UHGV virus genome: UHGV-0069047
Source of the DNA: a virus
Direction: 5' to 3' (one strand)
DNA: 40,276 nt
Numbering within the stretch: the first letter of the stretch is position 1; each line of letters starts with the position of its first letter. The notes beneath the pieces were generated by a model, which had not been told where the DNA came from, did no database searches, and saw nothing but the letters and a program-made list of their open reading frames with translations. The translations under genes and the position numbers were made by a program. Shown here one piece after another: positions 3,730 through 35,461 of the stretch.

Positions 3730-6381
3730 TTATTTTGATTCCAATAGTTCGAGTCGCTCTTCAATACGATCGCATCGACGGCGCTGATATGCAGCCTCAA
3801 GCCAAGCGCACTGGTCAGGCCGTATACCCCATGAACTACCCGCTTTTTTAACCAGCCTCTGTTCTCCGGTGTCATATTCGACGGTGACCAACTCACCAGA
3901 CGTATCGGTAATCTCTTTAGTCGCGATTACCGGCTCAAAAATATCATCCCACTCGTCATAGCAAAGAAGGCCAAATCTGGTTCCATCAATTCCGTGCGCC
4001 AAGAATACATCCCTTACCTGCTGAGCCATGACGCCAAAATGCCATCTGGCACCATCGCCCTTCATGGATATAGCGTCGAGCCATCGATACGCCACAACAG
4101 AAATATCGCCCCAGGCATCAAGAATGCTGTCTCTATCAGAAGAAAGCATTTCACTTAAATCTGATATTGCCTCGGGATTGGTTTTCAGCGTGGCATCTGA
4201 TGAAACGGTTGGGGCATTTGCAAAGTAGGCGTCTTTAATACGAAACGATGCCTGACCAAAATTATAGGTATTGTCAGCAAACGGGCGAAGACCTGTATCA
4301 TAAAACCGCCAGCGTATGGTTCCTCCCAATGCTGTCGGGTCGCTGTTGCATGCAATATCCACCGTGGTGGCAGACCTAAACACAGAAGAACTACCGCCCA
4401 ATACCAAGCTATTTGCGCTAGCTGTAGCCTGCTGGTCAAGGACCAATATTTTCTGAGAGTTTGTAGTTGCACCGGCATATGATGATGCAGTGATGCGGTT
4501 TAATTGGTTTGTATCAGGATCTGCGTTTTGCTGAATGGTTAAGTTAGATGCCCACTGTGCCGGTCGCTGGCGCACAAATACAAAGTCACCAGAAGGATTA
4601 GTTGCAACCAAATAACTAATGCCACTATCAGATGAATAATAGTTGACTATAAAAGTCTGATTATTCGCATTCAGTATTTCAACATATGTGCTGGAAGGGA
4701 TTGCCACGCCAGATATATCAGCAATGCTGACAGTCCCTGTGTAAAAATTAAATGCCTTCTGACTCATCTCCTGCATATAGCGAAGAATTTCAGTCATGTT
4801 AGTGAACAACGTACCATCTACAGGGTTAACAATCCCCTTCGCACTACGGGGATATACCCCAATGCTCGCGTGATCGATATCAAATCCGCGGTAAAGCCTG
4901 GATGCAGGTGTAAAATCGATAGCATCTTTATCAGTGGAGAAATCTTCGAAAATAACCAAACCTGAATTGTAAGGTTCAGAGCCAGTTCTTTCCTGATGAA
5001 TGTAAAGTGAATAAATGGATTTTCCATCCTGAGAAACACAAACGCCTTCATTTTCTATGCGAGTGACGTTCAATCCTGCGGCTTTCATTAAATCCATCAT
5101 GGCCTGAGGATGAAGCATTGATTCAGTTCGCTTTGTACCGTCAGGGTTAAAAACTTTGCTGCCCTGATATTCGTTATATCCTGCGCTTCCTGCCCCATCA
5201 GCTATGAAGCCGCCATAGCCGCAGACAAAGTAGTTATCACCTACCGCAATACCCTGACGCTTGTTGAAATAAGGCGCATAAGGTGAGGTGCTTTTAGTTA
5301 CATACCCAACATCATGTAACGGCAGCGTTATAGTTGACAGGCGATTGAAACCACTGTCGAACACTGCAAGTACAGTTCTTGTGATTTTCTGTCCTACTTC
5401 TGGCGCATTCTGCTCAACGAGCCATATACCTCTTCTGTAGCTGAACTGGTTGAATAATCCAACATCATGGTTTTGTACAAGAGGCAGATTGCTTCCGTAT
5501 AATGCCCCCTCCATATTAAATTCACGCAGTATTCCGTTTGTGTGACCAACAAACATTTTTTTGGGGCCATAGTCTGACGTAACCACGATTCCTTCAGCAG
5601 CGAAGCCTGGGCCGCCAGCCTGAACATAGAAATAACCTTGATAAATACCAGATATGTTAAATACTGCGACGACATTATTCGTCTGTTTAGGCTCAAATGG
5701 ATAAGTGATGTATATCAAATCTTCGCTAACGCAGAATCCTTGAGGATACATATAAGTTGCTGACGGGTTAGCAGCCATAATCGCATCATATTCAGGAAAA
5801 AGAAGCGGCATCGTAGCTACAATCTTTCTTTGGTGATTTGTAAAAATATCGTTTTTAGCGCTGTTAGGTGTAGGCGTTACACCTCCAGTAAAAAGATCAT
5901 CAACATAACCTTTATTGACAGCATCGTTTCTGTCAGTGGCATTTGCTAGATTTGATATCTTATTATTTTTTGCATCATAATAGTTAGCCAGAATGCTTGG
6001 TTTTATAAGTGCTAACCTCATCCATGAAAAACACTTTTGAATAAGCATTGTCAGTTTATCGAACGCGTCTTCATGTACCTCAGCGAAGAACTTACCCTGA
6101 TTACGCAAATCAGTATCCTGCGTAACCGGGATCTCTCGTGATATAGAAATATGATAACCGTTAGCCAACGCCTTCGACAGAATTACATTACCGCCATTAT
6201 ATCCTCCAGCATTGGTTACTGTGTAGTCAGTATCCAGAACCAATTCTGTTACGTTCCCGTTCAGGTCAGACACCTGAACAACCAGGTCTGATTTTCTGAA
6301 AATTCGAAAAGTATACGGAAACGATGTCGTAACGCCGTTACCTGTGTATTCGTTGTGGTCAACTTCGGTTGAGACCGTCAT
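3730..6381 (-). CDS. tailspike with C-terminal intramolecular chaperone (peptidase S74-like) domain
   Basis: 883 aa; conserved tail-fibre-like N-terminus; C-terminal block (SDRDSILDAWGD...GIRPDQCAWLEAAYQRRR) resembles the autoproteolytic chaperone domain of endosialidase-type spikes. Confidence 0.75.
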   Translation of the reverse strand: MTVSTEVDHNEYTGNGVTTSFPYTFRIFRKSDLVVQVSDLNGNVTELVLDTDYTVTNAGGYNGGNVILSKALANGYHISISREIPVTQDTDLRNQGKFFAEVHEDAFDKLTMLIQKCFSWMRLALIKPSILANYYDAKNNKISNLANATDRNDAVNKGYVDDLFTGGVTPTPNSAKNDIFTNHQRKIVATMPLLFPEYDAIMAANPSATYMYPQGFCVSEDLIYITYPFEPKQTNNVVAVFNISGIYQGYFYVQAGGPGFAAEGIVVTSDYGPKKMFVGHTNGILREFNMEGALYGSNLPLVQNHDVGLFNQFSYRRGIWLVEQNAPEVGQKITRTVLAVFDSGFNRLSTITLPLHDVGYVTKSTSPYAPYFNKRQGIAVGDNYFVCGYGGFIADGAGSAGYNEYQGSKVFNPDGTKRTESMLHPQAMMDLMKAAGLNVTRIENEGVCVSQDGKSIYSLYIHQERTGSEPYNSGLVIFEDFSTDKDAIDFTPASRLYRGFDIDHASIGVYPRSAKGIVNPVDGTLFTNMTEILRYMQEMSQKAFNFYTGTVSIADISGVAIPSSTYVEILNANNQTFIVNYYSSDSGISYLVATNPSGDFVFVRQRPAQWASNLTIQQNADPDTNQLNRITASSYAGATTNSQKILVLDQQATASANSLVLGGSSSVFRSATTVDIACNSDPTALGGTIRWRFYDTGLRPFADNTYNFGQASFRIKDAYFANAPTVSSDATLKTNPEAISDLSEMLSSDRDSILDAWGDISVVAYRWLDAISMKGDGARWHFGVMAQQVRDVFLAHGIDGTRFGLLCYDEWDDIFEPVIATKEITDTSGELVTVEYDTGEQRLVKKAGSSWGIRPDQCAWLEAAYQRRRCDRIEERLELLESK

Positions 6382-6485: not shown

Positions 6486-6500
6486 TTACCTTTCAGGTAA
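6486..6500. promoter_or_regulatory. operator-like palindrome TTACC-TTTCA-GGTAA
   Basis: Perfect 5-N5-5 inverted repeat, intergenic. Confidence 0.5.
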
Positions 6501-6537: not shown

Positions 6538-6557
6538 TACTGTATAAATATACAGTT
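6538..6557 (+). promoter_or_regulatory. LexA (SOS) box upstream of antirepressor module
   Basis: TACTGTATAAATATACAGTT matches CTGT-N8-ACAG with AT-rich spacer, 5 nt before the first ATG. Confidence 0.6.
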
Positions 6558-6577
6558 ATTGCATGGAGAAGATTAAG

Positions 6578-6835
6578 ATGCAGCAGTATAACTATCCACT
6601 GGAAGACGGATTTACCGAAAGGATTCACACGCCGGGAGGCGTCAGGTCACTGGTGGAGGGATCGCACTTGATGAAATTACTCCGGGATCTCGATAAGGAT
6701 GGATTTAATGTCGATGGCCCACTTGCCGAACTGACTGCACTGATTAACTACGTCACCAGCTCACAGATGTCTATGCAGGATCTGCAAACACATCTCGACT
6801 ATTGTGCCGAACAATTACGAAAGCAAACCAGATAA
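6578..6835 (+). CDS. small protein homologous to the C-terminal domain of the adjacent antirepressor
   Basis: Aligns with the C-terminal ~70 aa of the 7153..7809 product; SD GGAGAAG before ATG 6578. Confidence 0.45.
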   Translation: MQQYNYPLEDGFTERIHTPGGVRSLVEGSHLMKLLRDLDKDGFNVDGPLAELTALINYVTSSQMSMQDLQTHLDYCAEQLRKQTR

Positions 6836-6866: not shown

Positions 6867-6881
6867 TTACCTTTGCGGTAA
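6867..6881. promoter_or_regulatory. operator-like palindrome TTACC-TTTGC-GGTAA
   Basis: Perfect inverted repeat, upstream of antirepressor gene. Confidence 0.45.
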
Positions 6882-6972
6882 ATTTACATCGCACTCCTCT
6901 TGTGCCATAGTAATCAGGCACTGGCAAAATCCAGTGCCGGGATTGGTCTCCCGGATTACTAAGTGGCGCATA

Positions 6973-6995
6973 CCACGCCAGACGTGGTTTTTTTA
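6973..6995 (+). terminator. rho-independent terminator
   Basis: CCACG-ccaga-CGTGG followed by TTTTTTTT. Confidence 0.55.
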
Positions 6996-7152
6996 TGCGT
7001 ATAGCACAGTCATGCCAGAATTATGGTGGGCTGAATGGGGGTCCGAAAGGACGCCGGTACCACTTAGGCCGGTAAGACCAACTCCGTTCAGTTCACCACC
7101 ATCTGATTGGTCTCAGCGGTGGTGATGTAATTCGCTAAGTGGAGACGCCATC

Positions 7153-7809
7153 ATGAACGCTCAACTCATCCCCGTATTCAACGGCACTATATCTAACGAA
7201 ACAGCCCTACTTTGTAATGCCCGCGATCTGCACGCTTTTTTAGGTGTTAAAAAGGTGTTTGCAGCATGGATTACAAATCGCATTTCAGAATACGAATTCA
7301 TTGAAAATCAAGACTATATTTTGCTTTCCAATTTGGGAAAGCAAACATCTGGTAGAGGCGGACACAACCGCAAAGAGTACCACCTCACCCTTGATACAGC
7401 CAAAGAGCTGGCGATGGTCGAGCGTAACGAAAAAGGTCGCCAGGTGCGACGCTACTTCATTGAATGCGAGAAACGTTTAAGACAACAAGAAACAAAAGTG
7501 GAGAAGGTCTTGTCAGGCTTCATGCCCGCCATTATGGAGGCGATCAAGCTGGAAGACAAAAAAGAATACAGTGCACCGCTGAAGCCCGGCTACCGGAGCC
7601 TGATTCATTCGCCGTCTGGTGTTCTCGGCCTGACGGAGAACTCACTGCTGATGAATTTGCTGAACCAGTTACAGGAAGACGGGCATGACGTATCGGGCGC
7701 GGCGGCGGAACTGACCACCATGTTCTGCTACATCGTTGGTGTGAGCAAATGCCTGCGTGATATCCAGACTCACGCGGAGTACATCAACGACAAAGCAGGA
7801 TTCTTCTGA
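7153..7809 (+). CDS. antirepressor (AntA-type N-terminal domain)
   Basis: N-terminal block (IPVFNGT...[10 protein letters not shown]...[32 protein letters not shown]) matches the AntA/AntB antirepressor domain as I recall it; SD GGAGACG. Confidence 0.65.
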
Positions 7810-25631: not shown

Positions 25632-25708
25632 GTGGCATTAGCTCAGTTTGACAGAGCAACCGCCTTCTAAGCGGTTGGTCGCAGGTTCGAATCCTGCATG
25701 CCACGCCA
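25632..25708 (+). tRNA. tRNA-Arg (anticodon UCU), phage-encoded
   Basis: Hand-folded cloverleaf: 7-bp acceptor GTGGCAT/ATGCCAC, D-stem GCTC/GAGC, anticodon stem ACCGC/GCGGT with loop CTTCTAA, T-arm GCAGG-TTCGAAT-CCTGC, encoded CCA. Confidence 0.85.
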
Positions 25709-32364: not shown

Positions 32365-32429
32365 GATTTACCCCTGAGGTAATTAAAAACCACATAAGAC
32401 ACGAAATCAATAGATTTTAGAATATTTTA

Positions 32430-32444
32430 TTACCTCATAGGTAA
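32430..32444. promoter_or_regulatory. operator-like palindrome TTACC-TCATA-GGTAA
   Basis: Perfect inverted repeat in the intergenic region between P-like gene and downstream genes. Confidence 0.45.
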
Positions 32445-33282: not shown

Positions 33283-34079
33283 GCTTCAGGGCTGTTCCAG
33301 TGCGGAACGTTGTTATCAGGTAATGTTGATTGCTTCTGTCTGCTAATCTGCAGCCGCCTTGCCAGCTTCTGCTCCCACTGTGCCTGATGGTATGCCTTAC
33401 CCTCAGCCATCCAGTAAATTCTGAACTCTGCAAGTTCCTGTGCCGTTGGCAGACTGTCCAGGTAGATCCCCTGCAATGAGCTTTTCCGAAGAAAGTCATC
33501 TGATGGTTGCCATTGTTCATGCATGACAAATTTGCCTAATTGCCCTGGCCCACCAGGAGGAACAAAGTTATTCATCACGGCGTTGTTTGCGCCGGGGTCA
33601 TGAGGCACAGAATCCCCGCTTTTTGTCCTGCTCTCCCTCTCTTGGTTAAATGACTGGTTATATGACTGGTTCTGGATCCCGTTTTTGGGATCATTCAACA
33701 TCCCGTTTTTGGGATCATTCAACATCCCGTTTTTGGGTATATTCCCGTTTTCGGTAACATTACCGCTTTCGGGTTCATTACCCCCTTCCCGGTTGCCTTT
33801 AATGTTCCCGTTTTTGGTTATATTAAGAGAGAAAACCCGCACTCTTTTCGTCGCTCCCTTTCTCTCTCCGGTATCTGAAATAAGCCCCATTTTCATGAGC
33901 GATATAAGCCCGGCCTGCACGGTTTTTTTATTCATGCAAGTGTCTTTAACGAGGCGTTCTATGCTGGGGTAGCAGAGGTTATATTCATCGGCTCTGTCAG
34001 CCATCGAGAGCAGTATGAGCTTTAATGACGAGCTACCTGGATCTGTCTCCCAGGCCCAATCTGTTGCATGTCTGCTCAT
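33264..34079 (-). CDS. replication initiator, O-like
   Basis: N-terminal winged-helix-like region, internal iteron array encoding repeated PKNGMLND peptides, directly upstream of P-like gene. Confidence 0.6.
   Translation of the reverse strand: MSRHATDWAWETDPGSSSLKLILLSMADRADEYNLCYPSIERLVKDTCMNKKTVQAGLISLMKMGLISDTGERKGATKRVRVFSLNITKNGNIKGNREGGNEPESGNVTENGNIPKNGMLNDPKNGMLNDPKNGIQNQSYNQSFNQERESRTKSGDSVPHDPGANNAVMNNFVPPGGPGQLGKFVMHEQWQPSDDFLRKSSLQGIYLDSLPTAQELAEFRIYWMAEGKAYHQAQWEQKLARRLQISRQKQSTLPDNNVPHWNSPEAWEDFL
33676..33824. repeat. origin-like iteron array inside initiator gene
   Basis: Two perfect 24-bp units ATCCCGTTTTTGGGATCATTCAAC, then about four degenerate CCGTTTT-GG-type units. Confidence 0.65.
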
Positions 34080-34375: not shown

Positions 34376-34390
34376 TTACCTTTAAGGTGC
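34376..34390. promoter_or_regulatory. imperfect operator-like site TTACC-TTTAA-GGTGC
   Basis: One half-site variant; adjacent AACCATATTTGGTT palindrome. Confidence 0.35.
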
Positions 34391-34445
34391 GAATAGATAT
34401 GAAAAGACCGCCGGGTGGCGGTCTACAGAGGGGTGTAGCTGGATA

Positions 34446-34676
34446 TCATGAGTAGAAGAAGTATGCCAGTTCTGCTTTTGAGCGCAACCATTGTCTTGTT
34501 TTACAGGCTTTAAAAAGCCCGTTCATCAATACTTTACCTGGCATTTTGCGCTTACCTGTTAAGTGAGTCTGGATATAGTGACTCGTCGTTCCGGCTTCCT
34601 GTGCGAAGGCTTCACGCTCATCCGGAGTAAGTGCAAGCCAGTGCTTTTTGAAATCGAAATGTCCGTTATCGCTCAT
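34446..34676 (-). CDS. Cro-like HTH regulator
   Basis: 76 aa with HTH-like segment; divergent from repressor gene; first gene of the replication-side operon. Confidence 0.5.
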   Translation of the reverse strand: MSDNGHFDFKKHWLALTPDEREAFAQEAGTTSHYIQTHLTGKRKMPGKVLMNGLFKACKTRQWLRSKAELAYFFYS

Positions 34677-34712
34677 AGCTATTGCCTGATATTTATTTCA
34701 GATAATAAATAT

Positions 34713-34775
34713 TCACCCATAAGGTAACAAAAATCAAGGATAGTTACCTATGAGGTGCATTTACCTGTTGGGTAA
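34713..34775. promoter_or_regulatory. OR-like operator cluster in the immunity switch
   Basis: Three sites: TCACC-N5-GGTAA (34713-34727), TTACC-N5-GGTGC (34744-34758), TTACC-N5-GGTAA (34761-34775). Confidence 0.55.
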
Positions 34776-34830
34776 TATTGCTTTAAATTGAATCATCTAC
34801 TGATTCATATATGAGGCGATTTTCCAGAAA

Positions 34831-35415
34831 ATGAAAAGTATCCAGGACGTCCGCAGGCAAAATCTCAACGACTTGATCGACCGTGAATTCAATGGTGTTC
34901 AGACGCGGATGGCAGAAAAACTTGGAACTCAGGCAAATCTGGTAAACCGCTGGGCTCTTGGCAAGAAGGTTATCGGCGACCAGGTTGCGCGAAAAATTGA
35001 AGCTGCCGCCAATAAACCACGTAACTGGCTTGATATCGATCGCTCGCTTTCTCAGGAAGGTTTTCAGCCTGTCGGCCCAAGCGACATTGGTCAGCTGGCG
35101 GCTCACAACCTGGAACGCTGGATGAGCGAAAGCCGCGACCTTTCAACACAGGGAAAACTTCACCGCGCATCCGGCGTCGCCCAGGTGACAATCAGCCGCC
35201 TGTTAAACAATGAGGTCAGCGTTTCCATTTCCACCCTGGAGAATGTTGCATCCGCATTCGGGCGTCACGGCTATGAATTACTGATTCACCCGCACGACCC
35301 TGCGACCATCAACTATGACCGCTCGCGCTACGCATTGTTACCCGAAACCGAGAAAGCAAAGATCGAAAGTTACATTGAATTTGTCATCAACCAGAACGAA
35401 AAAAACAAACAATAA
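34831..35415 (+). CDS. prophage repressor-like protein lacking an S24 peptidase domain
   Basis: 194 aa with two HTH-like segments, no Ala-Gly / Ser-Lys autocleavage module; divergent from cro-like gene. Confidence 0.55.
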   Translation: MKSIQDVRRQNLNDLIDREFNGVQTRMAEKLGTQANLVNRWALGKKVIGDQVARKIEAAANKPRNWLDIDRSLSQEGFQPVGPSDIGQLAAHNLERWMSESRDLSTQGKLHRASGVAQVTISRLLNNEVSVSISTLENVASAFGRHGYELLIHPHDPATINYDRSRYALLPETEKAKIESYIEFVINQNEKNKQ

Positions 35416-35436
35416 AATCATATTTTTCAGTAAGTA

Positions 35437-35461
35437 AGCCGCCTTCTGGCGGCTTTTTTAT
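35437..35461 (+). terminator. rho-independent terminator after repressor gene
   Basis: AGCCGCC-ttct-GGCGGCT followed by TTTTTTA. Confidence 0.65.

Follow-up and report, generated by a model that had tools for sequence, protein, structure and literature searches.

The virus genome UHGV-0069047, a DNA of 40,276 nucleotides (hereafter the window), carries at positions 34446–35415 a divergently arranged pair of genes: rep, which encodes a predicted immunity repressor (Rep) of 194 amino acids (aa), and a gene for a 76-aa small helix-turn-helix (HTH) protein in the position of cro. Homology searches lead us to assign this immunity region, with a probability of about 90%, to the lysogeny switch of a phiV10-type Uetakevirus, i.e. 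an epsilon15-like podophage of E. coli, and to the Rep/Ant/LexA family described for the Salmonella phage SPC32H (Kim & Ryu 2013, J Virol 87:11775; Kim et al. 2016, PNAS 113:E2480; PDB 5D50 and 5D4Z), in which Ant is an antirepressor. The 1.3-kb switch region is 97–99% identical to its counterparts in phiV10, TL-2011b, O157 typing phages 9 and 10, PAS61, vB_EcoP_ZX5 (hereafter ZX5) and others (97–98% for phiV10 and ZX5), and all these close matches are epsilon15-like podophages of the genus Uetakevirus. The elements of the switch are given below, with predicted operators scored against the 15-bp palindrome TTACC-N5-GGTAA.

34405–34424, minus strand: intrinsic terminator 3' of the Cro-position gene; phiV10 annotates one at the same place
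34446–34676, minus strand: Cro-position gene for the 76-aa small HTH protein, first gene of an early operon that runs into the replication genes
34677–34830: 154-bp gap between the Cro-position gene and rep
34702–34730, minus strand: promoter-like site of the Cro-side operon, TTGTTA-17-TATTAT, by consensus match only
34713–34727: predicted operator O1, TCACCCATAAGGTAA, one mismatch, overlapping the -35 element of the Cro-side promoter
34744–34758: predicted operator O2, TTACCTATGAGGTGC, two mismatches
34761–34775: predicted operator O3, TTACCTGTTGGGTAA, perfect arms, just upstream of the rep-side promoter region
34831–35415, plus strand: rep, 194-aa immunity repressor, identified as an open reading frame (ORF), by Pfam and by PDB homology; N-terminal HTH (residues ~1–72), linker and C-terminal HTH_3-like domain (residues ~89–190), no S24 peptidase
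35436–35455, plus strand: intrinsic terminator 3' of rep

An earlier note on this DNA (the original prediction) had described the repressor as a protein with two HTH-like segments and without a LexA-like cleavage module, and the domain search bears out both statements. Pfam identifies in Rep a YdaS/Cro-type HTH (residues 21–61) and HTH_3 in two stretches (the best at residues 106–147, E 1.2e-9). It reveals no Peptidase_S24 domain (PF00717) up to E = 1, and no Ala-Gly or Cys-Gly cleavage dipeptide occurs anywhere in the 194 residues. Rep is not a repressor of the lambda CI/LexA type, as the S24 domain and the cleavage site are both absent. A search of 5.8 billion proteins returned 86 relatives of Rep from Escherichia, Citrobacter, Lelliottia, Raoultella, Serratia and other genera, with full-length members of ~190–235 aa, and here too Pfam detects HTH-type domains only, the S24 domain being found in 0 of the 86. 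The lack of a recognizable S24 domain would not in principle prevent Rep from being a classical SOS-sensitive repressor, either through RecA-assisted cleavage or through a partner protease. Nothing in the sequence speaks for such cleavage, and the fact that phages with an identical Rep are SOS-inducible does not by itself separate the models. Moreover, the whole window contains no S24-like ORF according to tblastn searches with LexA and lambda CI (best E 1.3), no match to an ImmA/IrrE-type protease was obtained among the scanned ORFs adjoining rep, and the C-terminal domain of the SPC32H homologue has been solved as an oligomerization and Ant-binding domain, not as a protease. We therefore regard cleavage of Rep as extremely improbable.

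The relationship of Rep to the SPC32H repressor extends over its full length. A phmmer search of the PDB matched residues 1–190 to chain 5D50_A of SPC32H Rep (E 4e-42) and residues 89–190 to its C-terminal fragment 5D4Z_A (E 4e-20), and the full-length identity of the two proteins according to tblastn is 41.8%. In an alignment of nine family members, four residues of the N-terminal recognition-helix motif NLVNRW (N36, L37, R40 and W41) do not vary, nor do parts of the C-terminal domain. Rep is 100% identical to gp40 of phiV10, which bears the annotation [quoted passage not shown], and to ORF21 of ZX5. In one GenBank record, by contrast, the 194-aa protein is called a VapI antidote, and NCBIfam yields weak, sub-threshold matches to antitoxin HTH families, which would suit an accessory XRE regulator or antitoxin; in that case the repeated palindrome would belong to another protein, such as the 76-aa HTH protein. 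We find this hardly credible, given that the position and the divergent layout of the gene are those of SPC32H rep, that the annotators of epsilon15 and phiV10 name it a repressor, and that overexpression of the identical ORF21 in ZX5 made free phage disappear and reduced the transcripts of endolysin by 99.99% and of holin by 99.97% (Li et al. 2022, PMC9782041).

The 154-bp gap between the two genes, which lie on opposite strands, corresponds to the region of about 150 bp across which the original prediction saw the repressor face its neighbor, and the three operator sites claimed for it are indeed there as O1–O3. In the window, perfect copies of TTACC-N5-GGTAA were observed 10 times (0.01 expected), and copies with at most two mismatches 42 times, compared with an expectation of 10.3, which scales to about 0.04 sites for a stretch of 154 bp. 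The clustering of operators is far beyond chance. SPC32H possesses the same half-sites in the same relative places: three in the gap between rep and the Cro-position gene, further sites past rep and one before ant. Since the NLVNRW motif is almost unchanged in the family and the half-sites of SPC32H are identical, it is Rep that would bind these palindromes in the lysogen, via its N-terminal HTH. One more operator-like site with two mismatches, within the coding region of cro (34552–34566), was treated as a chance occurrence.

The label "Cro-like" for the 76-aa protein is reasonable, judging from its position, from a match to phrog_35 "transcriptional repressor" (E 5.6e-13) and from its predicted fold class. 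Sequence searches of Pfam, NCBIfam and the PDB yielded no match for this protein. An AlphaFold2 model built with 19 homologues (predicted local distance difference test score, pLDDT, of 84) consists of five helices, and a Foldseek search of the PDB placed the DNA-binding domain of the 434 repressor, YdaS, P22 c2 and controller proteins of restriction-modification systems at the top. The query-normalized template modelling (TM) scores for the 434 repressor, YdaS and P22 c2 were 0.54–0.63, with E-values about 1, which are usual for a protein as short as 76 aa and make these matches indicative only. Its location and modelled fold make it most likely that this protein acts as Cro at the operators used by Rep. 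The 5' region of its gene also contains a CTG-N10-CAG sequence, CTGATATTTATTTCAG (34686–34701). We considered it as a second SOS input and rejected it as a probable chance occurrence: it is a poor fit to the LexA consensus, agreeing with CTGTATATATATACAG at only 8 of 16 positions and lacking the conserved T4 and A13. Its lack of conservation in SPC32H and epsilon15 supports the rejection.

The partner of Rep is predicted to be encoded far from the immunity region, next to an 883-aa ORF (3730–6381, minus strand) in the tailspike position:

6486–6500: predicted Rep operator, TTACCTTTCAGGTAA, perfect, in the divergent region between ant and the tailspike gene, ~40 bp upstream of the LexA box
6538–6557: LexA box, TACTGTATAAATATACAGTT, a perfect CTGT-N8-ACAG, 22 nt upstream of the ant start codon
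6578–6835, plus strand: ant, 85-aa small antirepressor, homologue of SPC32H Ant

The mechanically delimited ORF begins at 6563, and the conserved start codon, preceded by a GGAG ribosome-binding site (RBS), is at 6578. Ant is 87% identical to SPC32H Ant (tblastn) and matches PDB chain 5D50_E (E 4e-46). Rep and Ant are thus homologous to the two chains of one crystal entry, the Rep-Ant complex of SPC32H (5D50). Pfam gives no significant match for Ant, and the only phage families detected are phrog_450, 15539 and 1760. The LexA box TACTGTATAAATATACAGTT occurs once in the window, and a CTGT-N8-ACAG box is found at the same position in SPC32H, epsilon15 and ZX5. Four elements are conserved in an alignment with these three phages, namely the operator, a block past it, the LexA box, and the GGAG RBS with the start codon. 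The GenBank record of epsilon15 marks a repressor site in the corresponding intergenic region between gp19 (the Ant homologue) and the tailspike gene. A LexA-controlled antirepressor, as claimed in the original prediction, is therefore supported by the sequence of ant and of the region before it. Ant and Rep differ in how closely they resemble their SPC32H counterparts (87% against only 42%), and the NLVNRW motif and the operator half-sites are common to both phages. This suggests cross-immunity or cross-induction between these phages as a possibility.

These elements can be arranged into the following course of events. In the lysogen, Rep would occupy the three sites in the gap, pairs of sites 62 bp apart around the early-left promoter and a downstream early promoter, and single or adjacent sites before ant, terS and the portal operon. 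Because Rep has no S24 autoprotease, RecA* could not inactivate it directly. Host LexA would sit on the perfect SOS box just upstream of ant, and its removal upon DNA damage would allow production of the 85-aa Ant. Ant would then bind the C-terminal domain of Rep and take apart the tetramer that binds DNA, which has been shown for SPC32H and is our inference for this phage; the lytic promoters would then fire, with the 76-aa protein probably acting as Cro on the same operators. The published data on SPC32H agree with this scheme. A review counts the SPC32H study (Kim and Ryu 2013) among those on Salmonella enterica prophages whose repressor is inhibited, through protein-protein contact, by an antirepressor made once LexA has cleaved itself (PMC7380047). 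According to two further papers, SPC32H Rep binds DNA as a tetramer, which is broken when tetrameric Ant binds two Rep dimers (PMC9638917), and the C-terminal domain of Rep mediates both tetramerization and Ant binding (PMC9986798). As for phages of the phiV10 type, the data obtained in ZX5 with an identical Rep fit the scheme, in that an Ant-domain protein lowered lysogeny and the lysogen is inducible with mitomycin C (PMC9782041); the microcin Mcc1229, examined in work on DNA-damaging bacteriocins, induced prophages of the phiV10 species (bioRxiv 2026).

Cleavage of SPC32H Rep reportedly does not occur, and the sister phage SPC32N is said to be lytic owing to a point mutation in its LexA site. 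The switch in the window is real and was correctly read, but it is already known, because its Rep is identical to the annotated and experimentally handled phiV10 gp40/ZX5 ORF21, and both the mechanism and the Rep-Ant crystal structure come from SPC32H; it is a rediscovery and not a new prediction. Several points nevertheless weigh against the scheme as applied to this phage. The connection between small Ant, LexA and Rep is drawn here from homology to SPC32H, and contact between Rep and Ant is likewise deduced from proteins of which one is 42% and the other 87% identical to those in the crystal. A scan for sigma-70 consensus promoters gave no match for either the ant promoter or the rep promoter. 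Finally, the ZX5 study was performed with a long Bro/Ant-domain protein and not with the small Ant, and LexA is not mentioned in it (PMC9782041).

The window contains a second antirepressor module directly past ant, a cassette of isrK and C4 RNAs that resembles immI of phage P1:

6867–7809, plus strand: the module as a whole
6867–6881: predicted Rep operator, perfect, overlapping a promoter-like site
6918–6994: isrK-type RNA (Rfam 67.7 bits, gathering threshold 50)
7019–7103: C4 antisense RNA (Rfam 61.2 bits, gathering threshold 45)
7153–7809: 218-aa ORF, a fusion of an N-terminal AntA domain (Pfam AntA, E 4e-26) and an Ant-like C-terminus

The immI locus of P1 and P7 comprises the c4 antisense RNA, icd and ant; its design is a1/b1 - c4 - a2/b2, the parts of which can be recognized here. 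The C4 stretch CCACTTAG is complementary to positions 6959–6966 in isrK and 7135–7142 before the ORF, and the C4 stretch AGACCAA to 6943–6949 in isrK and 7107–7113 before the ORF; the site predicted to pair with C4 at 7135–7142 abuts the GGAG RBS of the 218-aa ORF. Like P1/P7 immI and the isrK-anrP locus of Gifsy-1, the second module would thus combine an operator-controlled promoter, an a1/b1 region (isrK), C4 with two complementary loops, a2/b2 at the RBS and an antirepressor gene. It differs from P1/P7 immI in that the antirepressor has a C-terminal domain resembling SPC32H Ant: residues 135–216 match phrog_450 (E 4e-36), and the C-terminal ~85 residues are 37–40% identical to the small Ant. 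Over its last ~88 residues, the 218-aa protein is identical to the C-terminal part of the anti-repressor ORF4 of ZX5, whose N-terminus is Bro-N instead of AntA, and the same difference in the N-terminus of the long antirepressor separates the window from phiV10. No CTG-N10-CAG box is present at the second module.

The sequence therefore suggests two differently controlled Ant-domain proteins in this phage, and since the second of them appears to be governed by a C4 antisense RNA, more than one antirepressor route may exist. This bears on the claim of the original prediction that induction depends entirely on an antirepressor: the kind of pathway is right and matches the published SPC32H system, but the word "entirely" applies to what is known for the SPC32H homologue only, and here there are two Ant-domain proteins. 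It could also be that the main inactivator of Rep is the long 218-aa AntA and Ant-domain protein, alone or as an amplifier, so that the small Ant would not be the sole trigger and induction would not be purely LexA-gated. In addition to the homology of its C-terminus to Ant and its own Rep operator and promoter-like site without a CTG-N10-CAG box, this view can draw on ZX5, a phage with an identical Rep, where overexpression of the Ant-domain protein ORF4 lowered the prophage titre ~1000-fold; rep transcripts fell by 75% (PMC9782041). On the other hand, the small Ant and its LexA box are conserved throughout the genus, whereas the long gene is mosaic with a variable N-terminus; nothing is annotated between ant and the structural genes of SPC32H, which apparently copes with the small Ant alone; and a gene that is itself held down by Rep can reinforce induction but not initiate it. 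On balance we consider it unlikely that the long protein is the main inactivator, and prefer the small LexA-gated Ant as the trigger. The drop in rep transcripts on antagonism of Rep would fit positive autoregulation from O3, as O3 is located just upstream of the rep promoter region.

In phiV10-type phages, the gene of the second Ant-domain protein would be gated by both a Rep operator and a P1-like C4 RNA, and the N-terminus of the protein is variable, AntA or Bro. A tentative proposal is that these phages use a two-stage circuit, in which the LexA-gated small Ant triggers the loss of Rep and the second Ant-domain protein locks the decision in or provides anti-immunity upon superinfection. 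As a further part of this tentative proposal, a single Ant might be capable of cross-induction of different Uetakevirus prophages, in the manner of the Gifsy antirepressors, because Ant is ~85% conserved between phages whose Reps are ~42% identical and read the same half-sites.

The predicted Rep operators are not confined to the immunity region. They are intergenic, and almost all transcription units, terS and the portal operon among them, have such sites ahead of them. The following were found in addition to those at rep, at ant and in the second module:

35473–35549, plus strand: early-left promoter cassette, with operators at 35473–35487 and 35535–35549 and the promoter-like sequence TTGACA-17-AATCAT at 35507–35535
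32368–32444: second operator pair (32430/32368)
34376–34390: degenerate operator-like site, TTACCTTTAAGGTGC, past the cro terminator and ahead of the replication genes
28473 and 28491: operators ahead of terS
25297: operator ahead of the portal operon
7882: operator which, like that at 6867, lies ahead of the genes beside ant

The 35473/35535 pair brackets the early-left promoter ahead of the recombination operon, and the second pair brackets a promoter-like stretch ahead of the DUF1064 gene; in both, 62 bp separate the starts of the two operators. SPC32H contains 62-bp pairs as well (33604–33680 and 35972–36048 in SPC32H coordinates), which also bracket promoter-like sequences, and a site similar to 34376–34390 at the same relative position. 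A spacing of 62 bp corresponds to roughly six turns of the helix, a distance that would be well matched to a single Rep tetramer bridging both sites. Because operators stand ahead of terS, the portal operon and nearly every other unit, Rep may directly repress late genes. The genome-wide distribution of operators is already known at the level of annotation, since the GenBank record of epsilon15 marks equivalent positions as "protein_bind: repressor"; the note on its repressor cites 5D50.

Compared with SPC32H, the window shares the two-domain design of Rep, the close similarity of Ant, the TTACC/GGTAA half-sites, the three operators in the gap, the 62-bp pairs past rep, the operator and LexA box before ant, and the location of ant by the tailspike gene. 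The differences are the 42% identity of Rep, the operator spacers, which are of mixed sequence in the window and A/T-rich in SPC32H, and the module with C4 RNA and the AntA-Ant fusion, which SPC32H lacks beside ant. Because of the divergence of Rep and of the spacers, the Rep of the window may represent an immunity allele different from that of SPC32H.

LexA-controlled antirepressors that act on non-cleavable repressors have reportedly been described for Gifsy, Fels-2 and coliphage 186 (Tum) (Lemire et al. 2011; Shearwin et al. 1998). The systems of Gifsy-1 and Gifsy-3, Fels-2 and 186 Tum resemble the switch discussed here in the repressor without an autocleavage module, the LexA-repressed antirepressor gene and inactivation by protein-protein contact; in the family searches Ant showed no sequence relationship to the Gifsy or Tum antirepressors, with no direct comparison to the Tum or Gifsy proteins made. 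With lambda (CI/Cro, OR1-3, PRM/PR) the common features are a divergent pair of repressor and Cro with three operators between them, and a second set of operators on the other side of the repressor, ahead of the recombination operon. Unlike lambda CI, the Rep of the window lacks S24 and would form a tetramer via a different C-terminal domain, its predicted operators are found also before late and packaging genes, and induction in the Rep/Ant switch would, by analogy with SPC32H, be a reversible sequestration and not cleavage.

For the annotation of genomes, this analysis means that phiV10-type prophages, in E. coli O157 as in other strains, are best described as induced by LexA and Ant and not by cleavage of a CI-type repressor, which bears on the engineering of reporter phages and on the prediction of inducing stresses. 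What goes beyond the published switch is how the small Ant under LexA control may interact with the long Ant-domain protein under C4 control, together with possible cross-induction between Rep alleles.

Two further observations concern the surroundings of the switch and the window as a whole. A 17-nt stretch past the cro terminator (34386–34402) is 88% complementary to the -35 region of the early-left promoter (35498–35514); the comparison of TCATATCTATTGACACC with TCATATCTATTCGCACC (minus strand) suggests a duplicated promoter/operator cassette ahead of the replication genes. A tRNA-Arg (anticodon TCT) is encoded at 25632–25708 on the plus strand, with the neighboring structural genes running in the opposite direction, and SPC32H possesses an annotated tRNA-Arg in parallel.

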